Part shown: in pieces, positions 4,104 to 28,421 of the stretch
Position numbering within the stretch: the first letter of the stretch is position 1
Layout: every line of letters begins with the position of its first letter
DNA from: Bdellovibrionota bacterium
GTDB lineage: Bacteria > Bdellovibrionota_C > UBA2361 > CAKMMH01
Length of the DNA stretch: 64,000 nucleotides
Assembly: GCA_050952645.1 (NCBI GenBank)
Contig: JBMNLI010000017.1
Location: 256,001 to 320,000 of the forward strand
Direction: 5' to 3'
Notes under the pieces: generated by a model
The model's input: the letters and a program-made list of their open reading frames with translations, nothing else
Databases searched by the model: none
Told to the model about the DNA's origin: nothing
Made by a program: the position numbers and the translations under genes

Positions 4104-4967
4104 ATGACTATAAATATTAGAACGAATGTCGCATCATTAGTATCGCAAAGAAACTTAGATAGTAGCACAGCGAGTATAAACTCTGCTTATGAAAGATTAT
4201 CATCGGGTCTTAGAATTAACCATGCTAGAGACGATGCTGCAGGTCTTGCAATTGCAGAGAGTTTAAAAGCTGATGCAAAAGTTGCATCCGTTGGTATTAG
4301 AAATGCAAACGATGGCATCTCTATTATTTCTATTGCCGACCAGGCGATAGGACAAATCGGAAATGTGCTTAGTAGATTAGCAGAGCTTGCTCAACAATCT
4401 GCAAATGGTGTGTATAGCAATACTCAACGTTCAGCACTAGCAAACGAGTTTGTAGCATTAACATCGGAAATTGAAAGAATTGCCGTAACGACATCATTTA
4501 ACAAATTACAATTATTAAGCGGTGGTGGTGAGGTTGTATTCCAAGTAGGTTTCGATGGAAGTTCAACTTCGCAAGTAAGTTATAAGGGAGTAGCAGCTAC
4601 TCTCGAGGCTCTAGGGCTTGCAGATGAGGGGACATCAAATGTAAATGTTTCCATTATTGCAGATACCGATTTAGCTTCTCAATCTGCTGCGCGTATCGCT
4701 CTAGATGCGATAAATAATGCTATTGCATCTTGTTCGAGAAATAGAGGAACTCTTGGTGCTGCTGAGGCAAGACTAGAGGTTACTATCAGCAACTTACAAG
4801 TTGCGAGAGAAAACTTTAGAGCTGCAGAAAGCCGTATCCGTGATGTTGACGTTGCTTCTGAAGCAGCTGAGCTGACAAGATTAAATATCTTACAACAAGC
4901 AGGTTCAGCAGTGCTTGCACAAGCTAACTCTCAACCTCAATTAGCATTACAATTATTACGTTCATAA
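4104..4967 (+). CDS. fliC: Flagellin (minimal, 287 aa)
   Basis: ERLSSGLRIN-A-DDAAGLAI at the N-terminus and SRIRDVDVA-E...ILQQAG-AVLAQAN at the C-terminus. Confidence 0.97.
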   Translation: MTINIRTNVASLVSQRNLDSSTASINSAYERLSSGLRINHARDDAAGLAIAESLKADAKVASVGIRNANDGISIISIADQAIGQIGNVLSRLAELAQQSANGVYSNTQRSALANEFVALTSEIERIAVTTSFNKLQLLSGGGEVVFQVGFDGSSTSQVSYKGVAATLEALGLADEGTSNVNVSIIADTDLASQSAARIALDAINNAIASCSRNRGTLGAAEARLEVTISNLQVARENFRAAESRIRDVDVASEAAELTRLNILQQAGSAVLAQANSQPQLALQLLRS

Positions 4968-5031
4968 TGTAAGTTTAATAAAAAATATTTTTATAGGGTT
5001 GTTTATTTTAGGTTTTAAAAGGATTTAGAAA

Positions 5032-5892
5032 ATGACACTTAATATTAGAACAAATATGCCGTCGGTTACTGCTCAAAAGAATTTAAATGCTACGGGTGGT
5101 AGACTTCAAACTGCTTATGAAAGACTTTCATCTGGATTAAGAATTAACCATGCTCGTGATGATGCTGCTGGTCTTGCTATTGCAGAAAGCTTAAAAGCCG
5201 ATTCAAAAGTTGCTTCAGTTGGTATAAGAAACGCAAACGACGCAATATCAATTATCAACATTACAGATGGAGCGGTAGGACAAATAACGAATGTTCTAAG
5301 TAGACTTAGTGAGCTAGCACAGCAATCTGCTAACGGCGTGTATAGCAATTCACAACGTTCTGCATTACAACTTGAGTTTACGGCATTATTAAGTGAAGTG
5401 GAGCGTATCGCTTATACTACCGAGTTTAACGGACTTAATCTTTTAAGCAACGGCGCTACGGTAACGTTCCAAGTTGGCTTTGATGGTTCTTCTTTATCGC
5501 AAATTAAATATGATGGAGTAGGAGCAACATTACAACACTTAGGACTAGCTCCCGAGGGGACTTCTGTTCATAAGTTCTCTATAACTGGTGATACCCCAGA
5601 GGCTTCTCAGTCTGCCGCAAGAAACGCACTCGATGCGATACAAACTGCTATAGACTCGGTAACTAGAGGAAGAGGTATTTTAGGTTCTGCGGAGTCTAGA
5701 CTAGAAACTACTATTCAAAATCTACAAGTAGCTAGAGAAAACTTTATCGCAGCTGAAAGTAGGATTCGTGATGTCGATGTAGCAGAAGAGGCTGCTAACC
5801 TTGCATCTGCAAATATATTACAACAAGCAGGAACTGCAATTTTAGCTCAAGCTAATTTACAACCACAATTAGCACTTCAATTGCTTCAATAG
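5032..5892 (+). CDS. fliC: Flagellin (minimal, 286 aa)
   Basis: Same conserved flagellin N- and C-terminal motifs; tandem paralog. Confidence 0.97.
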   Translation: MTLNIRTNMPSVTAQKNLNATGGRLQTAYERLSSGLRINHARDDAAGLAIAESLKADSKVASVGIRNANDAISIINITDGAVGQITNVLSRLSELAQQSANGVYSNSQRSALQLEFTALLSEVERIAYTTEFNGLNLLSNGATVTFQVGFDGSSLSQIKYDGVGATLQHLGLAPEGTSVHKFSITGDTPEASQSAARNALDAIQTAIDSVTRGRGILGSAESRLETTIQNLQVARENFIAAESRIRDVDVAEEAANLASANILQQAGTAILAQANLQPQLALQLLQ

Positions 5893-13469: not shown

Positions 13470-14327
13470 TTATTGTAATAATGATAAAGCTATTGCTGGT
13501 GCTTGGTTTGCCTGAGCAAGAACTGAAGATGCGGCTTGTTGTAATATATTTAATCTAGTAAGCTCAGCAGCTTCAGAGGCAACATCAACGTCTCTAATAC
13601 GGCTTTCAGCAGAAGCAAAGTTCTCCTTAGCAACCTCTAAGTTGTTAATAGACACCTCAAGTCTAGATTGAGTAGCACCTAAAACACCTCTAGTAGCTGC
13701 AAGCGATGTAATAGCAGCATTTACTGCATCTAGTGCAGTTCTCGATGCTTCTTGAGCAGCTTCGGCAGTGTTAGCATTAATAGAAAAAGATAACTGAGAA
13801 GAGTTAGCTTGTGCTAATCCTAATGCTGCTAACGTGCCTTGAGTGTTCTTAAAAGATACTTGTGATGTAGAAGCAGAGTCGAACCCTACTTGCAACGTCA
13901 CACCACTAGAACCCGATAATAGTCCTACACCATTAAACTCGGTAGTTACTGCTATACGCTCGATTTCAGATGCTAGCGACACAAACTCATTTTGAAGCGC
14001 AGAACGTTGAACGGTCGAATATACACCGTTTGCCGATTGCTCAGCTAGCTCTGCAAGTCTTGTGAGAACGTCGCCAATTTGTCCTAATGCACCATCAGCG
14101 ATAGATACTGCCGATATACCGTCATTAGCGTTTCTTATTGCCACAGCGGCAATTCGTTGGTCAGCCTTCAAAGAGTCAGCGATAGCAAGTCCTGCAGCGT
14201 CGTCACTAGCTTTATTGATTCTTAAACCAGATGATAGTTTTTCGTATGAAGAACTAAGCTCTGCGGTTGCAATGCCTAATTTTCTTTGAGCCTGTAAAGA
14301 TTGAACATTTGACCCTAATGTAATCAT
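13470..14327 (-). CDS. fliC: Flagellin (minimal, 285 aa)
   Basis: EKLSSGLRINKASDDAAGLAI ... SRIRDVDVASEAAELTRLNILQQA. Confidence 0.97.
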   Translation of the reverse strand: MITLGSNVQSLQAQRKLGIATAELSSSYEKLSSGLRINKASDDAAGLAIADSLKADQRIAAVAIRNANDGISAVSIADGALGQIGDVLTRLAELAEQSANGVYSTVQRSALQNEFVSLASEIERIAVTTEFNGVGLLSGSSGVTLQVGFDSASTSQVSFKNTQGTLAALGLAQANSSQLSFSINANTAEAAQEASRTALDAVNAAITSLAATRGVLGATQSRLEVSINNLEVAKENFASAESRIRDVDVASEAAELTRLNILQQAASSVLAQANQAPAIALSLLQ

Positions 14328-20008: not shown

Positions 20009-20374
20009 ATGATTATTATAACCGACGATACGTTAAAAAAACTTTCCGCTTCACTAGATGAGTTAGCTTTCGCCGTTATTAGTGCTAAAGAGTATTTACG
20101 AGCTACTGAGCCTAAAAGTAAAATTCTACCAAGAATAGAATATTATGAAGAAATAGTAAATAAACAACGAGAACTAGCTATCACCTTAAGTGAAAAGGCA
20201 AAAACTAACGAACAAGAATCTATAGCAAGAATAATAGTAATTATAAACGAACTTTCTTATATGTTTAAACAGGACGTCCAAGAAATTTTATCATCTCCAG
20301 CTTTAAATCCAAAATTAAGGGAAACATCAAAAAATTGTGAAAAACAAACTTTCTCAAAAGAACAAATTTGCTAA
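20009..20374 (+). CDS. Hypothetical helical protein
   Basis: 121-aa ORF with AGGAAG SD; overlaps the next gene. Confidence 0.6.
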   Translation: MIIITDDTLKKLSASLDELAFAVISAKEYLRATEPKSKILPRIEYYEEIVNKQRELAITLSEKAKTNEQESIARIIVIINELSYMFKQDVQEILSSPALNPKLRETSKNCEKQTFSKEQIC

Positions 20375-21464
20375 AAGTAAAGGCGTAGCACTACTACTAA
20401 CTACATTTATCATAGCTTTAGTAGCGATCTTAATCGTAAACTTAAGCTATTCTACGATGATAACCTCTCAGCAAAATACTAACCTTACTAGAGCTACACA
20501 AGCAGAATATCTCTTAAAATCGGCAGAATCGCTAGCAATAGTTCTTTTAAATAACGATGCAAACTCATACGATGCAAAACATTTCGATTTATCAACCTCT
20601 CTTAGCGATGCTCAAGCTATCTTTGCAACCCCTCAAGATGTTTCAAACTTTTTAGAAATTCCAATAGATGGCGTAAAAATAAGTATGCAACTAGTGCCTT
20701 GTAATGCATACTTAAATTTTTCTAATTTAGATAGAGATATAAAAAGACAGCAAATTTTAACTACCCTTTTTGACGCTCTAATGCTTGAAAATATCGAGGG
20801 AGAGTTCACATCGGAGCTATTACAAAACTCTAATAATACTAACGAACAATTAGTCGCTAATATTGCAGATTATTTAGACGCAGGAAATGAAGATTGTGAA
20901 AATTGCGTCGCTAAAGGTATAGAAAGCCAAATCCATGATAAAAACATAAGAAAGTTATGGGACTCGGGAACTATTACAAACTTTGGCGTTTTATACACAC
21001 TACCTAGATTTAATATGAATAAAGTAAATGCAATAGCACCTTATTTTTGCATCAACCCTACTGCCAACTCTAGAGAATATAATTTAAACTTAAATTACGT
21101 ATCCACAGAACTTTTAAACGTTCTTGCAGAATATGCTTCTAAATACCAAAGTGCAAATATCGATGTAAATGCCATTATCTCTAGACAAAATGAAGACGTG
21201 CCATTTACATCACCTAACGATATAATGCAATTCTTTTCACAATTAGGAATAGAGGCAGATAAGGTTTTCTCAAATAATTTTTTTACTACTAGTAGCCACT
21301 ACTGGGAGCTTATAGCCTCAGTGTCGATTGGGAATTCCACATCTAGGGTGCGCTCTATCATTCAAAAAGGCGCTATCAGACCAAACCAAGACCAAAACCA
21401 AAATCAAGACCAAAAGCAAAATCAAAATGGCGCTCGAGTTATAGATAGAGAACTAATTTTTTAA
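20337..21464 (+). CDS. gspK: Type II secretion minor pseudopilin GspK-like protein
   Basis: Class III signal KG|VALLLTT with hydrophobic stretch; IADYLD, LNLN and FTTSSHYW patterns typical of GspK. Confidence 0.8.
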   Translation: MKNKLSQKNKFAKSKGVALLLTTFIIALVAILIVNLSYSTMITSQQNTNLTRATQAEYLLKSAESLAIVLLNNDANSYDAKHFDLSTSLSDAQAIFATPQDVSNFLEIPIDGVKISMQLVPCNAYLNFSNLDRDIKRQQILTTLFDALMLENIEGEFTSELLQNSNNTNEQLVANIADYLDAGNEDCENCVAKGIESQIHDKNIRKLWDSGTITNFGVLYTLPRFNMNKVNAIAPYFCINPTANSREYNLNLNYVSTELLNVLAEYASKYQSANIDVNAIISRQNEDVPFTSPNDIMQFFSQLGIEADKVFSNNFFTTSSHYWELIASVSIGNSTSRVRSIIQKGAIRPNQDQNQNQDQKQNQNGARVIDRELIF

Positions 21465-21564: not shown

Positions 21565-21885
21565 TTATTTCTTTACATATTTAGCTAAAATTTCATCTAT
21601 CTGCGGATTGCCCTCTAAAATTGTATTTGCTAACTCTAGAAAATCTTTATCATTAGCTAATTCCTCTTTCTTAGCTACAACATTTACTATATACGCTTTA
21701 ACCTCATCTAAAGAACAAAACTCATTTGTTTTTAAATCCTCTATCTCACGCTTCCACGTATCGGCTAAAGAAATTTTGCTTTCTACATTTTGTGAACCTT
21801 TTAAAAGATTTTCATTAGTTAAGATTTTTGCTTTCTTTTTTGTTTTTTCTAATTCTTTTACTTTTAAATTATTTTTATTTTTCAT
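21565..21885 (-). CDS. Hypothetical protein, last gene of the T3SS-like operon
   Basis: 106-aa ORF co-oriented with, and 35 nt after, the TPR lipoprotein gene. Confidence 0.65.
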   Translation of the reverse strand: MKNKNNLKVKELEKTKKKAKILTNENLLKGSQNVESKISLADTWKREIEDLKTNEFCSLDEVKAYIVNVVAKKEELANDKDFLELANTILEGNPQIDEILAKYVKK

Positions 21886-21919
21886 ATTCTAAACCCCTTA
21901 AAAAAATATTTTATTATCC

Positions 21920-22936
21920 TTAAAACTTAAAATCATCAATATCAAACTCCTTCGCTTCATTATTCGCTTCATTTTTAATATTGATCACTTTATCGCTACT
22001 AAATTCTTTTTTATTTTTTGCTTTATCTTCTTTATCGTTTTTTATCTCTTTTTCATTTTCTTTATCATTTTCTTTATCACTTTCTCTATCATTTTCTTTT
22101 TTCTTTTCTTTTATATTTTCTTTTATATTTTCTTTTGCATTTTTTATTTTATTTTTTTTGCTTTCTTTTCTTTTTTGTTTGTTCACATCTTTCCCTTTAA
22201 GAAGACTAGCATCAACATTCCCCCTATCTTCCTTAGTCTCTAATGCACTTTTATTATGCACTTTAGAGCTAACATTGCTAGTAGTAAGCTTTAGTTTTTT
22301 AGCATCATTTTTCAAAATCTTTTTACTTTTTATATCTTTATCTTTATTAACATCACTAACACCACTCTTATTAACACCTTCCTTATTAACACCTCCCTTA
22401 TTAAAAGCTTTAACCTTTTTAATATTGTCGATAATAATATCATCTTTTTTAAGAGTGCTAGCTTTTTGAAGCTCGTCTAAAGCTTGGCTTTGTCCCTCTT
22501 TAGTATTATCGAATAAAAGCCCAGCAAAATTGTTCCTATCACGATAATTTTCTGGCTTTCTTTCTATAACAAACTTATAAATGTTTTTAGACTCTTCTTT
22601 TAAACCTAACACATCGTAAAGAAGTGCTAAATTTGATAAAGCCCTTAAATAATTTTTATCCTCTTCATAAGATTTTATAAAATACTCCTCAGCAAGCTTA
22701 TAATCTTTTTGGTAAAATGCTACGCAACCTAACCCATCATACCCCTCAGGGATAGTAGCCACTTCGAGCGATAAATTAAAGCCAGCTCTCGCTTGTTCAT
22801 AATTTCCTTGCATCAAATCTTTCGTAGCTCTATCTGCATACTCTCTTGCGAGCATAAGCTTTTCTCTACTCTTTTCATAAGAGCAGGAAGCTAAAAATAA
22901 AATATTTAAAATTAATAATATTTTTACTATTCTCAT
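21920..22936 (-). CDS. TPR lipoprotein with charged low-complexity tail
   Basis: Lipobox LASC, TPR repeats (GYDGLGCV.., ALSNLALLY.., RNNFAGLL) and a Lys/Glu-rich tail; start overlaps the sctV stop. Confidence 0.8.
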   Translation of the reverse strand: MRIVKILLILNILFLASCSYEKSREKLMLAREYADRATKDLMQGNYEQARAGFNLSLEVATIPEGYDGLGCVAFYQKDYKLAEEYFIKSYEEDKNYLRALSNLALLYDVLGLKEESKNIYKFVIERKPENYRDRNNFAGLLFDNTKEGQSQALDELQKASTLKKDDIIIDNIKKVKAFNKGGVNKEGVNKSGVSDVNKDKDIKSKKILKNDAKKLKLTTSNVSSKVHNKSALETKEDRGNVDASLLKGKDVNKQKRKESKKNKIKNAKENIKENIKEKKKENDRESDKENDKENEKEIKNDKEDKAKNKKEFSSDKVINIKNEANNEAKEFDIDDFKF

Positions 22937-24759
22937 GCAGCCTCTTTTAGTTGTAATTTAACTATGGTTCCACACACTTGTAATTTTACATCTTTTATTA
23001 TCTCTTCATGTGCAAGCACTGGAATATTTATGTTTTGTAAAGTTATAAAATCGAAAACACCTAGTCTTGCGTCTTTAGATGTTAAAAGCACTTTTCCCTC
23101 TACGTCTACTCCATCAAAAAACCTTACTATACTATTAAAACTTTCATCTGAAACTATATCTATCTCCTTTGCGGCTTTCATAAACTCTAAATCGATAACT
23201 GGGTCTAATAAGATTACATTTAGCTTAAAATCGCTACTAGCATATTTTAAACTAATCACTCTTTTTAAACTCTCACGAACGTTAGCAATTAGAGATTGTT
23301 TATTGATGTTATCTTTATCGAGTTCCGCAACGCCCTGAAGAATCATATCAAAATGCTTAATACTGATATCTTCCTCGATTAAACTTTTTAAAACTAACGT
23401 TAATTTAGTAACGCTTATTATATCTGGCACTACCCTATTTACTAAATCTTGATAAGTGCTTTCGTAAAAATCTAATAATTTTTTAGTTTCATTATCATCT
23501 ATAAACTCTAATATATTATTATCTAGCACTTTTTTTAGAGCATCTACAAACCTTACACCGCCATCTTTTAGATCAAAGTCTTTTTCTACATTAACATTAA
23601 GCCCTTTTATTTTTACTTCAAATTTTTCTACGCTATCATCAGTCTTTATTTCTGGAGTGCTTAATATGATTCCCCATTTTTCAAAAGCGTATTTTCTAAA
23701 CTCCTCTATACGTAGTTTTAATAAATTTATATTGTGAAGCTCTTTTAAATACGACGTATTAAATACTATTAAAAGTGTTGGCTCTATTCTTGGAATATAA
23801 TTTACCACCTCGTGTGATACGCTTTCTATTTGAGATTTTTGATTAGATGCTAAAAAACTCAAAAAGAAGAACGCCCCTATTAGCAAAAAAGGCACCGCAG
23901 GCATTCCAGGAATTAGTGCAAGTAGAAGTGAGATTATACTAATTATTATTTTTGGTTCCTTTAGTTGTCCTAATTGTTCTGGAATTTGGCTAGCTAAAGA
24001 CGATTTATCATCCGATACTCTCGTGATAATCATTCCAGCAGCTAACGAGTTTAAGAAAGCTGGAATTTGTGCTAGTAGTCCATCACCGATAGTTAAGAGA
24101 GTATACTTAGAAATAGCAGACTGAATATCCATATGATTTATAAAGATACCTACCGCTAAACCTCCTATAATATTTATAGCCGTTATTATAAGTCCCGCTA
24201 TCGCATCTCCTTTTACAAACTTCATCGCTCCATCTAGTGCACCATAGAACCTAGACTCGGTTTGCAACTCTTCTCTTTTTTCTTTTGCCGTTTTAAAATC
24301 GATAAGCCCAGAGCGAACGTCTGCATCGATAGACATTTGTTTCCCTGGCATAGCATCTAGCGTAAACCTAGCCGATACCTCTGCAACCCTTTCAGAACCT
24401 TTTGCTATTACTATAAATTGAACTAATGTGATAATTAAAAATACTACTATTCCTACGACTAAGTTTCCTTGTATAACGACCTTTCCAAAAGCTTCAATAG
24501 TTTTACTAATAGTGTTAGACCCTAAGATCATTCTTGTAGTCGATACATTTAACGCAAGTCTAAATAACGTTGCTAAAAGTAAAATCGTTGGAAGAGAACT
24601 TAATTTTATTGGCTTAGTAATATACAATGCGCTAACTAGTAAAAGTAATGATAAAATCAAATTAGTCACTAGCAATATATCTAAAACGCCTGATGGTAAT
24701 GGAAAAAGCATACTTGCAAACATGGCAAGTACGCTTATTGGCAAAATTAAATTTTTCAT
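22933..24759 (-). CDS. sctV: Type III export gate SctV/FlhA family (shortened)
   Basis: FHIPEP signature KGSERVAEVSARFTLDAMPGKQMSIDAD, plus FYGALDGAMKFVKGDAIAG and LTIGDGL; 608 aa. Confidence 0.92.
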   Translation of the reverse strand: MKNLILPISVLAMFASMLFPLPSGVLDILLVTNLILSLLLLVSALYITKPIKLSSLPTILLLATLFRLALNVSTTRMILGSNTISKTIEAFGKVVIQGNLVVGIVVFLIITLVQFIVIAKGSERVAEVSARFTLDAMPGKQMSIDADVRSGLIDFKTAKEKREELQTESRFYGALDGAMKFVKGDAIAGLIITAINIIGGLAVGIFINHMDIQSAISKYTLLTIGDGLLAQIPAFLNSLAAGMIITRVSDDKSSLASQIPEQLGQLKEPKIIISIISLLLALIPGMPAVPFLLIGAFFFLSFLASNQKSQIESVSHEVVNYIPRIEPTLLIVFNTSYLKELHNINLLKLRIEEFRKYAFEKWGIILSTPEIKTDDSVEKFEVKIKGLNVNVEKDFDLKDGGVRFVDALKKVLDNNILEFIDDNETKKLLDFYESTYQDLVNRVVPDIISVTKLTLVLKSLIEEDISIKHFDMILQGVAELDKDNINKQSLIANVRESLKRVISLKYASSDFKLNVILLDPVIDLEFMKAAKEIDIVSDESFNSIVRFFDGVDVEGKVLLTSKDARLGVFDFITLQNINIPVLAHEEIIKDVKLQVCGTIVKLQLKEAA

Positions 24760-24775
24760 AAAGCTAAATCATAAA

Positions 24776-25108
24776 TTACGCAGTTCTAACATTTCTAATT
24801 GCAGACATTTTGGTTTCATGCTCCGATTTAATAATATTAGAAGTTAAGGTTACTTTCTGCATTTGTTGTTGCCAATAAATTTGAAGACCAATCATATTTT
24901 GAAACTCAGATTGCATACCAAAAACCGAACCTGCAACGCCCCCTACGGTAGCTAACGTATCACCAACTGCGCCTAGCACATCTGAAAACCCCGAGCTACT
25001 TTCAGTTTCTGGAACGGGTGTATATCTTGTAAGACCTGATGCGTCAAAATTATCGTAATTAAAGCTTTCTGTTTGTGGTGTTAATGCTTTGTTTATAGTA
25101 TTAGACAT
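24776..25108 (-). CDS. Putative T3SS needle/filament subunit (SctF-like)
   Basis: C-terminus LQ..WQQQMQKVTLTSNIIKSEHETKMSAIRNVR resembles the SctF C-terminal helix (SN..K...D....II.N.R); lies between sctQ and sctV. Confidence 0.55.
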   Translation of the reverse strand: MSNTINKALTPQTESFNYDNFDASGLTRYTPVPETESSSGFSDVLGAVGDTLATVGGVAGSVFGMQSEFQNMIGLQIYWQQQMQKVTLTSNIIKSEHETKMSAIRNVRTA

Positions 25109-25211
25109 AAGATTTCTCCCGAAAAAATATTTTTGCTTTTTAAAAAGATATTTTTACATAAGATGTTTTCTTATATAAAAACACTCTAATAGAAATATTC
25201 GAGAGAAATTT

Positions 25212-26111
25212 TTAAAAGTTGCAAGAATTAACTAAAAAACTTATATTTTTTTCATCGAACGTCAATTCTCCAGAAAGAACATCTTTTGAGCCTATTTTTA
25301 ATATCGCATTTATCTTTTCATCTCTATCTAAAATAATCTTATCTCCCTCTTTTAATGCGACTAGCGACTTAAGGTCGATATCGATAGAACCTATATAAAG
25401 TGTAGCCTTTACCTCTATATTATCAGCTTTATTATTATCAGCTTTAGTATTATCAGCTTTATTATAGTCTTTAGTAGTATTTTCATTTTCCATAAGTTCA
25501 CCCTCGTTATTTATTACTGTAAAAATAAGCTTATCATCAGTTATTTCTAAATTGCTAAGTGCAAGCTCTCTTTCTAAGAAAGGAGCTTTAAGAGTAGATG
25601 TGTTAGCTAAAGTTAAGTTTAAAATATTTTTTGAAACCTTCTTTATATTAGTAGCTAGCAGTGTAGGATATATCGAAACGGAGATACTTTTATTTTCAGC
25701 ATTATATTTCTTAAATATATCTACAAGATTATCTTCTAAAAACTCTTTTTTAATACTCGATATATCGTAAGGAGTGCTAAAATAAATTTTCCTATCTTTA
25801 AAAATGCATTCTTCTTCAAATACTGGGAAAACGCTAGCAAAATCTGGTATTCTTTTTATCGATAAATTGTTTTTATCGAAAACTCTTAAAGCATCAAAAA
25901 TTTTTATTTCATCATTAGTTAAAATTTCATCACTAAAACTTATAGAAAAATAGTATTCATTTAACTTAAACACCGCTCTTTGTCTTCTTATATCGAAAGA
26001 GACTTGCTTATTAGAAAACTCTACATTACTAGATAATAAAACATCTAGTAGGCTTTTTATAAAGTTTCGTTCCTCTTTTTTTATATATCCAAAATCAAAC
26101 TTTGCTTTCAT
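25212..26111 (-). CDS. SctQ/FliM-FliN family (C-terminal SpoA domain)
   Basis: C-terminal IGSIDIDLKSLVALKEGDKIIL...VLSGEL SpoA pattern; operon context. Confidence 0.75.
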   Translation of the reverse strand: MKAKFDFGYIKKEERNFIKSLLDVLLSSNVEFSNKQVSFDIRRQRAVFKLNEYYFSISFSDEILTNDEIKIFDALRVFDKNNLSIKRIPDFASVFPVFEEECIFKDRKIYFSTPYDISSIKKEFLEDNLVDIFKKYNAENKSISVSIYPTLLATNIKKVSKNILNLTLANTSTLKAPFLERELALSNLEITDDKLIFTVINNEGELMENENTTKDYNKADNTKADNNKADNIEVKATLYIGSIDIDLKSLVALKEGDKIILDRDEKINAILKIGSKDVLSGELTFDEKNISFLVNSCNF

Positions 26112-26144
26112 ATATTTGCTTTATATTCCATTTTACGTTTTTCT

Positions 26145-26324
26145 TTAAGAAAATATTACGGTATCTATTTTAATTTCTCTTTTTAAAAAATCTTGTAGCT
26201 CAGTAATATCTCTTAGCCACGCTTTAATTTTAGATAACGTTTTCTCGTCGTAAAAACACTCGTAATCATCTATTTTTAAAGAGTAAATCAGTTTTGCTTG
26301 TTTAAGATACCATATGTCTTCCAT
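26145..26324 (-). CDS. Small 59-aa ORF between sctJ and sctQ (not in ORF track)
   Basis: Hand translation MEDIWYLKQAKLIYSLKIDDYECFYDEKTLSKIKAWLRDITELQDFLKREIKIDTVIFS; fills the operon gap. Confidence 0.5.
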   Translation of the reverse strand: MEDIWYLKQAKLIYSLKIDDYECFYDEKTLSKIKAWLRDITELQDFLKREIKIDTVIFS

Positions 26325-26347
26325 TAGTTATGTCTTTCTATTAGTTA

Positions 26348-27214
26348 TTACTTACCTATAATCGATACAGTTTTTATTAAGTCTAATTTTTTATTATTCT
26401 TATATTTTTTTATATTTTTTATTATTACCAAACTTAATGCGACACCTAAAATAAGATAAAAATAATAATAATTATTTTTGATAAAACCTAAAACGCCACT
26501 ATGCCTGCTACCGTTTATTGTAGCTTTAGAACTTTCTAATATGCCGCTATTAGCTACTAATATGTTATTTTCAGAATTATTCTTTTTATCACCTAAAACA
26601 TTTATTTTTGAGATAACTATCGATACATCTTTTGCATCTATTCCAGAAGCTCCACTTATTATTGATTTTATTTTTTCTTCATCGAACTTCTCTTTATCGC
26701 TAACTACCATTAAAACGCTAGCACTAGTTTTTTCCTTATCATCTTTTTTTAAGCTAAGGATATCGTTTTTTTTAATATTTAAATGAACTCTAGCATCGAA
26801 CACGCCACTTAACGTTAGGAGAGTTTTCTCGAGTTCTGCCGACAAGACTCTTTCATAATAAAAATTCTTTTCTTGATTAGAGCCGAGCACCGATGAGGTT
26901 TCTTTAATATTAGAAGTGTTATCTTTTAGCAACCTTTTAGAGTCTAGAAGAGAAATGGCGTTTATTAAATCTTTTTTTTCTACTAGGAGCGTCCATTTAG
27001 CATCTGCTTGGAGTTCTTTTTTTGCTTCGATGCCTTCGCTATTTAATATGCCTATTAGTCTATTTACTTGAATTTCGCTTAAGTTATGAAGTAGTGCCTC
27101 TTTACACCCCATAAGAAAGCAGAGCGAACATAATAAAAATTTACATATTACATTAAAATAAAAACTATTATTTTTCATGTTTTTTTTCGTGTTCTTTTTC
27201 ACGTTCTTTTTCAT
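26348..27214 (-). CDS. sctJ: T3SS inner-membrane ring lipoprotein SctJ (YscJ/PrgK family)
   Basis: Lipobox LMGC then L-HNLSE-QVN..I-A-K, LEKTL..LSGVFDARVHL, SASV and a single C-terminal TM helix; far shorter than FliF. True start is possibly 27178. Confidence 0.88.
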   Translation of the reverse strand: MKKNVKKNTKKNMKNNSFYFNVICKFLLCSLCFLMGCKEALLHNLSEIQVNRLIGILNSEGIEAKKELQADAKWTLLVEKKDLINAISLLDSKRLLKDNTSNIKETSSVLGSNQEKNFYYERVLSAELEKTLLTLSGVFDARVHLNIKKNDILSLKKDDKEKTSASVLMVVSDKEKFDEEKIKSIISGASGIDAKDVSIVISKINVLGDKKNNSENNILVANSGILESSKATINGSRHSGVLGFIKNNYYYFYLILGVALSLVIIKNIKKYKNNKKLDLIKTVSIIGK

Positions 27215-27884
27215 CTTTAAGAATCTCCTGTAAATTACTTAATGCTTTTATGTGTATTCTCGTTATCGATGAGCGAGAATAAGATTTATAACTTTTTGCA
27301 ATATCTACAAAAGTTTTATCTTTAAAGTAGTGTTCTTTAATGATATGCCTTTCATCCTCGGATAACTTGTCGATAGCTTTCTCGAGAATTTGTCTTTGTT
27401 CTAATCTTAAATAATGGTTTTCAGGCGATTGGTCTTCGCTATCTGAAATTCTATCTTCTATAAGCTCATTAGTACCTAATTTAAAAACTAGTGCTCCTTT
27501 TGATACTAAATCAAAAACTTTTGCTATTTTCTCATCTTCTTTATCCTCAGGCTCGATGCTCAGCACTTTCTCTTCAAAATCCACGACGCTAGTGTAGGCT
27601 TTAGCAACCTTTGCATATCTATTAGTAGTTTGCGTGTCTTTTCTAAATGCGTCTATTATGGCTCCTCTTATTCTATAAAATGCAAAATTTTTAAAAGGAA
27701 CGCTATCTTTACCTTGCTTATATTTTGTTGCGGCTTCGATAAGCCCTACGTATGCAGAAGATTTTGCCTCTTCTATCTTTTCTTTATTTAATTTATATTT
27801 TTTAGCTACTTGGTATGCAACGCAATGTGCAAACTCTAAATTTGCTTCTACTATCTCATTAATGGTCATTATATTGTTAGACAT
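27168..27884 (-). CDS. FliA/WhiG-like sigma-70 family sigma factor
   Basis: GLIEAA.KY, F..FA.YRIRGAIIDAFR, and region 4 LSEDER..I...YFKDKTF.DIA.....SRSSITRIH.KAL. Confidence 0.88.
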   Translation of the reverse strand: MSNNIMTINEIVEANLEFAHCVAYQVAKKYKLNKEKIEEAKSSAYVGLIEAATKYKQGKDSVPFKNFAFYRIRGAIIDAFRKDTQTTNRYAKVAKAYTSVVDFEEKVLSIEPEDKEDEKIAKVFDLVSKGALVFKLGTNELIEDRISDSEDQSPENHYLRLEQRQILEKAIDKLSEDERHIIKEHYFKDKTFVDIAKSYKSYSRSSITRIHIKALSNLQEILKDEKEREKEHEKKHEK

Positions 27885-28287
27885 AATTATCTCTATTTTA
27901 TTTTTTATTTGTTATTTATATTCTCAAATTTTAAGCTTATACTTTTAAGCTTACATCTTAAGTTTGTATTTTAAAAATTATATTTTATAATTTATATTTA
28001 ATCTTTTTATTTAATCTTTAAGAAAAACGCTACAAAAACAACTTAAAAAAACAATATAAAAAAACTCTCTATAAGTTAGTCGAAAGTTTATTTTAAAAAT
28101 TTCAAAAATTTTCATATTTTATAAAAATTTTCAGTATTTTCTTTTACAATTAACTATTTTAACTTTGTTTCTGTATAATTTCACTAGGTTATATTATAAG
28201 AAGCCTTTTTGCGAGATTAAGAAAGAGTTAAGAACAAACTAAGAATATTTAGCTTAAGAGTATTTAAGGTAAAAGTTTAGGGTAAAG

Positions 28288-28397
28288 AACTACATTAGAA
28301 CTACAATAAAACTACAATAAAACTACAATGGAACTACATTTAAACTACAATAAAACTACAATGGAACTACATTTAAACTACATTTAAACTACATTGA
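28288..28397. repeat. Tandem array of ten 11-bp units AACTACA(A/T)T(A/G/T)(A/G)
   Basis: Units counted directly: aactacattag, aactacaataa x2, aactacaatgg, aactacattta, aactacaataa, aactacaatgg, aactacattta x2, aactacattga. Confidence 0.9.
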
Positions 28398-28421
28398 AAA
28401 AAAGTGCAATTGATATATAAT
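28394..28421 (+). promoter_or_regulatory. Candidate sigma70 promoter of glnS
   Basis: TTGAAA-N16-TATAAT. Confidence 0.5.

Follow-up and report, generated by a model that had tools for sequence, protein, structure and literature searches.

A sigma-factor-headed operon of a Bdellovibrionota bacterium as part of a probable scattered, secretin-less non-flagellar type III secretion machine with a needle-like subunit

A stretch of 64,000 nucleotides from a Bdellovibrionota bacterium, hereafter the window, was analysed together with its genome of origin (G000; 1.95 Mb in 17 contigs, about 31% G+C, 93.75% complete), in which it corresponds to positions 256001-320000 of contig C17. Between 21565 and 27884, the minus strand of the window carries an operon of eight closely packed, co-oriented open reading frames (ORFs). 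Their order had been read correctly in the initial annotation: a sigma factor, an SctJ-type protein, a 59-amino-acid (aa) ORF, an SctQ-like protein, a 110-aa protein, SctV, a TPR lipoprotein and a 106-aa protein. Genome-wide family searches upheld the statement that secretin, SctRSTU and SctN are absent from the window, and located homologues of SctRSTU, SctL, SctN and SctI elsewhere. The proposal of a divergent, split, secretin-less non-flagellar system of type III secretion (T3SS) is borne out by scattered, dedicated modules and by a genome in which no SctC was found. In the following, the machine to which the operon belongs is termed system 1 (SctV1, SctJ1 and so on) and a second non-flagellar set system 2 (SctV2 and so on).

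The first gene (27168..27884) encodes a divergent sigma-70 family factor with regions 2 and 4 and no match for region 3. Its presumed flagellar type holds in so far as it is related to FliA/WhiG; it is not FliA itself, reaching 68 bits on the FliA/WhiG model TIGR02479 (cut-off 190), and the true FliA (246 bits) is encoded on contig C12. The adjacent gene (26348..27214) specifies a 288-aa SctJ-type lipoprotein of the inner-membrane ring (PF01514, E 7.5e-18), which scores 99 bits on TIGR02544 (cut-off 162), matches no FliF model and has a cysteine at the lipobox position in 29/29 aligned rows. The small helical 59-aa ORF (26145..26324) occupies the sctK slot, an assignment by position; ORFs of this slot were aligned from 18 loci including the window, and their profile gave just 5.6% against the 72-aa ORF of system 2 after removal of a shared row. 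The SctQ-like protein of the C-ring or sorting platform (25212..26111) ends in a SpoA domain with a weak FliMN_C match (E 5.6e-5; E 5.6e-7 for an orthologue in locus L143).

SctV (22933..24759) is a short form of the export-gate protein, with 594-651 aa across 30 rows. It scores 500 on the hrcV model and 492 on the FlhA model, both below cut-off, and is spanned end to end by model PRK05910 (257 bits, cut-off 670); a homologue search with residues 300-608 retrieved eight near relatives only. The TPR lipoprotein (21920..22936), a candidate outer-membrane assembly factor, has TPR matches with PilW as best NCBIfam hit (E 2.7e-5), a conserved part of about 180 aa, a Lys/Glu-rich tail in G000 and a cysteine at the lipobox position in 28/28 rows. 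The small helical 106-aa protein encoded last (21565..21885) is conserved in the order (25 sequences aligned); none was detected in 19 loci of other orders, and searches of PDB sequences, Foldseek and Atlas gave no usable match. Profile searches returned no significant family match for the 59-, 106- and 110-aa ORFs.

The 110-aa protein (24776..25108) is related to needle and filament subunits by its C-terminal helix, which is near-invariant in the alignment. Its predicted structure consists of a helix (residues 41-55), a loop and a second helix (residues 68-109), with a mean pLDDT of 63. The SctF profile used for comparison was built from 12 of 17 PF09392 loci, excluding four longer filament- or tip-like proteins and one rod-like protein, and retrieves YscF, PrgI, MxiH and PscF from the PDB. 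In HHalign, the 110-aa profile matched this 12-sequence profile with 95.9% (E 5.5e-9) over 41 columns, in line with the SctF-like character that had been proposed. Unrelated small helical proteins gave 0.1% and all controls 0.1-2.9%; when compared with the 110-aa profile, the C-termini of FliE, FlgB, FlgC and FlgE, represented by small alignments, scored no more than about 1%. The SctI-like protein of module B (see below) matched the SctF profile with 92.1% and the 110-aa profile with just 2.9%. Since each of the two matches SctF while their mutual score is so low, system 1 appears to possess a rod gene plus a separate needle-family gene, and the 110-aa protein is likely a needle subunit or another filament subunit of the SctF-like kind. 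Among its first named neighbours in the ESM Atlas are a cluster with 11% T3SS_needle_F members (0.86) and HrpA (0.83), which are taken as leads only. A representative protein library yielded 567 matches, and Bdellovibrionota are the commonest phylum in one of the three nearest Atlas clusters. The two nearest clusters are mostly from Acidobacteriota, where a related system may exist. Proteins of about 200 aa with the needle-family motif at their end, resembling filament or tip proteins, were observed at L285 and L287 (Deltaproteobacterial/Polyangiaceae genomes G091 and G093).

Related ORFs were also found in myxobacteria. The 110-aa profile picked the ORF just before sctI in a putative 'short' T3SS locus of Archangium, so named from its gene content (E 0.003; L153:3242-3712, relatives L342-L366), and an ORF in the 'long' locus of the one Archangium genome examined (E 0.024; L151:14124-14636). 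The short-locus ORF has relatives in 38/41 genomes of that family, most with two to four paralogous matches, and adjoins sctI/sctJ in 25/25 best loci. Its C-terminal profile gave 94.3% against SctF and 97.0% against the 110-aa family. The myxobacterial systems, here called T3SS*, are stated to lack SctF in the available text of Abby and Rocha 2012 (PMC3459982), and the parts of later papers that could be consulted repeat the term 'needle-less' (PMC12075869, PMC12428579, PMC10849154, PMC10433427). In the literature since 2013, supplements not covered, no paper on a Myxococcus T3SS needle or SctF was found.

The loci underlying the counts for the order and the class were picked for the presence of the 110-aa gene. 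This gene is found in 79/89 genomes of the order sample with a single query, and with a profile in 94/96 genomes of the phylum sample (completeness at least 85%, all in one class); 29 genomes gave rows for the profile, and its weakest match (E 0.008) may be a rod gene. Within the order, sctV comes immediately after the 110-aa gene in 29/29 loci, and 28 of these have the sigma gene and sctJ. In the other orders of the class, sigma gene, sctJ, SpoA gene, 110-aa gene, sctV and TPR gene are present in 19/19 loci, and a second needle-like gene in tandem is detectable in seven of these. The constancy of this gene order is far beyond chance. Exceptions are three loci of family f3 without sctQ and the small ORF, both f19 loci, in which the TPR gene is missing, a displaced sigma gene in G026 and a sigma-sctJ pair located elsewhere in G006.

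Beyond the operon, termed module A, family searches of G000 detected three FHIPEP genes, three FliP/SctR genes, two FliI/SctN ATPases and six flagellin-domain genes. The FlhB/SctU family comprises a full-length FlhB, two N-parts of SctU and, as a gene of its own, a single C-part. Only two secretins are present, one typed as GspD and the other as PilQ; SctC, which a conventional injectisome encoded elsewhere would include, was not found in the genome-wide secretin searches. The flagellar set is complete (flhB-flhA-flhG-fliA, fliMN-PQR, fliF-H-I) and has a separate FliF of 550 aa. Module B contains, in this order, an sctI-like gene whose product weakly matches TIGR02497, a 316-aa ORF, sctR, sctS, sctT, the sctU N-part, a GAF/PAS histidine kinase gene and the sctU C-part; it is a single run in relatives and lies in two pieces in G000. 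A group II intron-type reverse transcriptase gene is inserted between its sctR and sctS (L003:7119-8417, contig C10). The genes sctL and sctN form a separate locus on contig C3, and the Walker A motif is present in 25/25 SctN rows.

This inventory recurs in relatives. The order of module B, like that of module C of system 2, is kept in 20 loci each, with most genes in 17-20 of the 20 and fewer matches for the 316-aa, 116-aa and SctT-2 genes. At least four FHIPEP matches, the pattern given by the three genes of G000, were counted in at least 78 of the 89 order genomes among the 150 of 357 matches listed. Three FliP/SctR genes occur in 19/26 order genomes and exactly two FliI/SctN-level ATPases in 53/58. 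Secretins, typed in G000 only, number two in 54 of 58 order genomes, one in the remaining four and never three; the phylum-wide figures are two in 61 of 66, one in four and three in one.

SctU of system 1 appears to be split into two genes at the autocleavage site (L004:8178-11063, at 20-23 kb of contig C17; relatives L235-L254). The N-part of G000 stops where FlhB has NPTH, the C-part is a separate gene, and NPT was found in the last 60 aa of 0/21 system-1 N-parts. In 18/20 loci the two parts are separated by the GAF/PAS histidine kinase, which measures about 1050 aa in general and 579 aa in G000; none lies between them in G074.

The initial annotation had considered that core export parts might be borrowed, even from the flagellum. 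This is excluded by the dedicated genes for SctR, SctS, SctT, SctU, SctL, SctN and SctI and by four relatives (G006-G009, 91-97% complete) that lack flagellin and flagellar FliP but retain the operon, having both SctJ and both non-flagellar SctR. These four genomes retain a canonical FliA (E ~1e-74) despite having no flagellin. G023, which is without module A, sctR-1 and SctN, was not used as a case of co-loss, as FliI and FliF are missing as well and the genome is 82% complete.

The genes of system 1 share a promoter-like box, for which word counts on upstream regions gave the consensus RG(A/C)AACTTTT-N12-CGA(T/A). On the minus strand of the window, an internal copy precedes the needle-like gene (25194..25224; position weight matrix (PWM) score 16.0), and a weak, lineage-drifted copy lies upstream of the sigma gene (28075..28105; score 5.9). 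Imperfect short tandem repeats with TGTAGTT-type units occupy the AT-rich spacer further upstream of the sigma gene (28300-28400). In loci of the order, the box is located upstream of the needle-like gene in 25/29, the sigma gene in 26/28, sctI in 14/19 and sctL in 21/23 cases, in total 86/99 system-1 upstream regions, with about three expected (0.5-0.9 per gene from shuffles); it precedes the head of module C in 1/17 loci. This pattern was written after the data had been seen, and cross-trained matrices, the fairer test, agree with it: a PWM from sctL regions alone recovered 15/19 sctI, 29/49 needle-like, 27/47 sigma and 1/17 system-2 regions. A set of 89 loci that includes 40 for Tad or module C gave 49 strict matches; 42 of these point into genes of modules A and B and none into C or D.

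In other orders the box was detected before 9/20 needle-like genes and before 1/19 sigma genes; one of the 20 needle-gene loci (L311) belongs to the order of the window. The sigma genes of the other orders carry the motif TGGCA...TTGC, 1-2 bp short of a sigma-54 box, in 18/19 loci (L292-L310), 44-152 bp upstream of the residue at which the sigma alignment begins; the canonical sigma-54 box was found upstream of the sigma gene in 0/47 loci. Because the box is common to modules A, B and sctLN and absent from C and D, the former are grouped as one presumptive regulon, system 1, and the latter as a separate set, system 2. The sigma factor of the operon is probably the reader of the box, which is missing from the six flagellin-domain genes of G000.

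In G000, copies of the box are located ahead of sctI, sctL, the two parts of sctU and, in module A, the genes of the sigma factor and the needle-like protein. A G000-tuned pattern, derived from these known sites so that only its two extra matches are new, adds the genes of an 832-aa TadE-like pilin (C3:48885) and a ComF-like protein (C5:4334). ComF was dropped as a conserved regulon member, there being no strict match on the comF contigs of five genomes scanned. An order-level PWM scan of G000 for substrates stayed at shuffled background (9 versus 7 of 1464). In five relatives the strict box gave 130 matches, compared to 15 for the reversed pattern, and the first six per genome were inspected. 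These 30 comprise five system-1 genes, a needle-like paralogue (L368), a GH108 lysozyme gene (L370), an ssb gene, a TadZ-like gene, two genes for proteins with Ser/Thr-rich N-termini, eight mobile-element or nuclease genes (one by eye), four repeated unannotated ORFs and seven unclear cases. A pesticin-like lysozyme gene of G009 (L180) also bears the box. Both lysozymes have short non-hydrophobic N-terminal extensions (by eye), compatible with type III export. The box was further seen before integrases, IS91/IS200 transposases, four-helix IVP proteins, an ORF6N protein and ssb (L369, L373, L374, L380, L385, L386, L390, L393, L394); mobile elements may be tuned to the sigma factor of the operon.

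System 2 is encoded by modules C and D. Module C, a second secretin-less T3SS (L002:115-7530, contig C15; relatives L255-L274), contains genes for an FHA protein, SctJ, 72-aa and 116-aa proteins, SctQ, SctR, SctS, SctT, the SctU N-part, a 78-aa protein and a TPR chaperone. The chaperone has weak SycD/SctY matches, and the 78-aa/TPR pair is placed like SctX/SctY; ATPase, rod and needle genes were not recognised in this module. Module D (L001:4546-15171, at 108.5-119.2 kb of contig C12; relatives L170-L189) is a Tad operon (tadZ, flp, cpaB, cpaF, tadB, tadC) running directly into sctV2 and a kinase-like/HEAT gene. In 20/20 loci tadC is immediately followed by sctV2, a linkage that fuses the Tad pilus and a T3SS export gate at the genetic level. 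Secretin searches of G000 and the order genomes found no Tad secretin. The pairing of C and D agrees with G018, where sctV2, kinase and module C form one run, and the grouping of system 1 with G034, where sctL-N lies 8 kb from module A.

To place the export gates, a FastTree phylogeny of 156 SctV/FlhA rows and LG+C20 trees were calculated, with named references from the SctV contig search and two to three myxobacterial rows per clade. The initial annotation had raised the case of a single SctV nested in flagellar FlhA; in FastTree, SctV1 and SctV2, two of three FlhA/SctV genes, are each monophyletic and long-branched and fall neither within flagellar FlhA nor within the injectisome clades sampled. 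Under LG+C20 both are on the non-flagellar side (SH-aLRT 98), SctV1 being deepest (88 and 84, unstarred). Approximately unbiased (AU) tests were run in IQ-TREE on 33 rows under two models, using fast searches and 5000 replicates, a number flagged by the program as too low. They rejected a grouping of SctV1 with host FlhA (p 0.013 and 0.0007), likewise of SctV2 with host FlhA, and a sister relationship between SctV1 and the secretin-bearing systems of the sample (p 0.019 and 0.002). Groupings of SctV1 with the myxobacterial short locus (p 0.42 and 0.16), with the myxobacterial long clade and with SctV2 were not rejected; those with the short or long clade were not recovered in free trees. SctV1 thus appears not to be a duplicate of host flhA. 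SctN does not fall within the flagellar FliI group, a placement that carries a long-branch warning. The PRK05910 match had raised the idea that SctV1 is kin to FlhA of Chlamydiaceae; this was discarded, as the two do not group in the tree. Gene content, namely lipoprotein SctJ, SctI and an SctF-like protein, is a firmer basis than the trees for the non-flagellar call.

Next to the operon and convergent with it, positions 20009-21464 contain an orphan gene for a gspK-like pseudopilin together with an ORF of 121 aa. The gspK-like gene was rejected as an operon partner, being conserved nowhere but in G000 among 29 loci; short ORFs resembling the 121-aa one were noticed by eye near sctU (L004:11257-11595) and PilQ (L007:6943-7278). 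The window also contains three flagellin genes (4104-5892 and 13470-14327), which may be independent of FliA, since no CCGAT or CGATA word occurs within 260 bp upstream of their matches.

The favoured interpretation, to which a probability of roughly 55% is assigned, is a non-flagellar T3SS with scattered genes that likely forms a secretin-less rod-and-filament conduit and exports, for example, cell-wall hydrolases on bacterial contact. The sigma factor of the operon would read the box, amplify its own expression and turn on all three system-1 modules. SctRSTU and SctV would assemble within the SctJ ring, powered by SctN-SctL on SctQ. With SctU made pre-cut, substrate switching might be set by the separately expressed C-part and not by autocleavage. 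SctI and the SctF-like protein would be exported and then polymerise, and the TPR lipoprotein could organise passage of the outer membrane, perhaps via borrowed GspD or PilQ. Candidate cargo would be box-bearing small proteins and lysozymes without evident signal peptide. Action on other bacteria is favoured because of the box-bearing lysozymes, the Tad-linked second set and the precedent of Kil and T3SS* in myxobacteria.

Several observations weigh against this interpretation. The needle assignment depends on one 41-column C-terminal helix, a motif that also terminates longer filament- and tip-type proteins; Pfam, NCBIfam, PDB sequence and Foldseek searches gave nothing for the 110-aa protein, and PF09392 is above cut-off in 0/89 genomes. 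The regulon is not secretion-specific (8/30 mobile-element or nuclease genes, one ssb gene, seven sites without a clear gene), and the lysozymes could instead open the cell's own wall. FliA could read the box, as it persists in the flagellin-less G006-G009, and the CGAT(A) half resembles the -10 element of sigma-28. A search for SctD returned two FHA proteins, neither with a transmembrane stretch, using one FHA profile and no SctD periplasmic domain. In G007 and G008, the operon lacks SctQ and no SctN match was obtained, with export gate and needle-like gene kept. In G078, the system-2 sctRSTU block is head-to-head with module A, which fits the opposite pairing of modules. Finally, the non-flagellar side also receives Chlamydiaceae FlhA, whose branch measures 3.5, and long-branch attraction can therefore lead to such a placement.

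A serious if doubtful alternative is that export reaches the periplasm only, where system 1 would build a short, envelope-confined rod or filament with a structural or signalling role, for instance in stress, contact or DNA exchange. No third secretin in G000 or 58 order genomes and no SctD candidate would be expected for such a device, and a periplasmic structure has been proposed for secretin-less systems in the consulted part of Abby and Rocha (PMC3459982). The histidine kinase inside module B (18/20 loci) and the boxes before ssb, a TadZ-like gene, integrases and transposases, and in G000 before the ComF-like and TadE-like genes, point the same way. However, no strict match for comF was obtained in five scanned genomes, the box is borne by genes for lysozyme-type proteins whose N-terminal extensions are short and non-hydrophobic, and a filament of several subunits that ends in a tip is suggested by needle-like paralogues in tandem (7/19 other-order loci) and at a remote site (L368).

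It is improbable that systems 1 and 2 and the Tad apparatus are one mixed predation complex of the Kil/T3SS* kind, sharing SctN and the SctU C-part. A single non-flagellar ATPase (two FliI/SctN genes in 53/58 genomes) and a single SctU C-part for two gates would fit such sharing, as would sctV2 behind tadC in 20/20 loci, the G078 arrangement and the recruitment of T3SS* by Kil in Myxococcus xanthus (according to the available text of PMC12075869). Yet J, Q, R, S, T, the U N-part and V are present separately in each set, the box is confined to system 1, and the gene linkages in G018 and G034 keep the sets apart.

Very little weight is given to a lineage-specific offshoot of flagellar export that merely resembles an injectisome and owes its tree position to a long-branch artefact. 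Such an offshoot would be consistent with the FliA-related sigma factor, the near-equal scores of SctV on the hrcV and FlhA models, a stem branch of more than 1.2 changes per site, the attraction of Chlamydiaceae FlhA to the same side and the departure of one rhizobial-type SctV from the non-flagellar clade in FastTree. It is contradicted by the AU rejection of a host-FlhA grouping under two models, by the injectisome features lipoprotein SctJ, SctI (weak TIGR02497) and SctF-like protein, and by the 110-aa profile, which matches the myxobacterial short-locus gene with 97.0% and the C-termini of FliE, FlgB, FlgC and FlgE with about 1% or less. A decaying relic, which fast evolution, sub-cut-off SctJ and SctV scores, a genus that has lost SctQ and SctN and the reverse transcriptase gene in module B might indicate, is hardly tenable given intact frames and an unchanged gene order in 48 loci throughout the class, the needle-like gene in 94/96 genomes, retention in a 1.95-Mb genome, Walker A in 25/25 SctN rows and a conserved box.

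More tentatively, and as an unlikely extension of the rod-and-filament conduit, system 1 might be a living form of the predicted pre-secretin, needle-bearing injectisome ancestor, the deepest non-flagellar T3SS, retained throughout an uncultured phylum next to a flagellum and the Tad-fused system 2. It would form its filament with no dedicated secretin, work with a pre-cut SctU and a sigma regulon of its own and deliver lysozymes to other bacteria, and the 'needle-less' myxobacterial loci might encode needle-family subunits that were overlooked. In the standard account of injectisome origin, so far as the available text of PMC3459982 gives it, the secretin-less intermediate survives only in myxobacteria and its needle was lost. 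If confirmed, a secretin-less system that spans a phylum and possesses both rod and needle-like genes would change that step, and SctF would never have been lost in T3SS*, a question testable in Myxococcus xanthus. A true myxobacterial needle-like gene would moreover reopen the question of how the predation-linked T3SS* reaches prey. The sctV gene within the Tad operon lends genetic support to a Tad-T3SS partnership so far known from co-localisation, the box offers a direct route to candidate substrates, and the two-gene SctU a natural test of the purpose of autocleavage.

Among known systems, the orphan FlhA/FliI/FliF set of Chlamydiaceae resembles system 1 in having a short protein of the FlhA family (583-605 aa) that is encoded apart from a flagellar cluster, according to the available part of PMC2830194. 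System 1 differs from it by SctJ in place of FliF and by full RSTU, I and F-like genes. With classical injectisomes (Ysc, SPI-1, SPI-2, Hrp, Chlamydia Cds, Desulfovibrio, Rhizobiales) it shares lipoprotein SctJ, SctI, an SctF-like protein, SctQ, SctRSTUV and SctLN, but it has no SctC, no SctD candidate and no recognised translocon. The presumed control by a sigma factor is reminiscent of HrpL.

The T3SS* of M. xanthus (MXAN_2434-2464, long locus) is likewise secretin-less and paired with a Tad system, Kil (PMC12075869 and PMC10433427, in their available text). It is system 2, and not the operon of the window, that resembles this pair, with a TPR chaperone, an FHA protein and sctV in a Tad operon beside a kinase-like gene. 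In M. xanthus, T3SS* and Kil lie in separate clusters, Kil has its own secretin and recruits T3SS* (as far as the same sources were accessible), whereas here sctV2 follows tadC, no Tad secretin was found and system 2 lacks its own ATPase. Co-occurrence of Kil and T3SS* is described as restricted to Cystobacterineae in the consulted parts of two reviews (PMC12428579, PMC10849154). T3SS*/Tad co-occurrence beyond that group is not wholly new, since both are recorded by annotation in Bradymonadia in the available text of PMC11509652.

The kinship with Myxococcales systems pointed out in the initial annotation is supported: T3SS*, and within it the short locus, appears to be the closest described kind. 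A description of system 1 itself was not found in the literature, supplements not covered. Like the short locus, system 1 has no secretin, no SctD found and a core of SctI, SctJ, SctQ and SctRSTUV, together with SctN. The short locus of Archangium is ordered needle-like ORF, I, J, small ORF, Q, FliO, R, S, T, U, V. System 1 does not share the single conserved locus, full-length SctU and absence of SctF published for T3SS* of the Cystobacterineae, and its SctV is about 80 aa shorter. Judged from gene content, the architecture appears new relative to T3SS*: three loci with a shared box and their own sigma factor at the head of the operon, a TPR lipoprotein, SctU in two genes around a histidine kinase, and residence in another phylum-level lineage alongside a full flagellum and a second set with a Tad-embedded gate.

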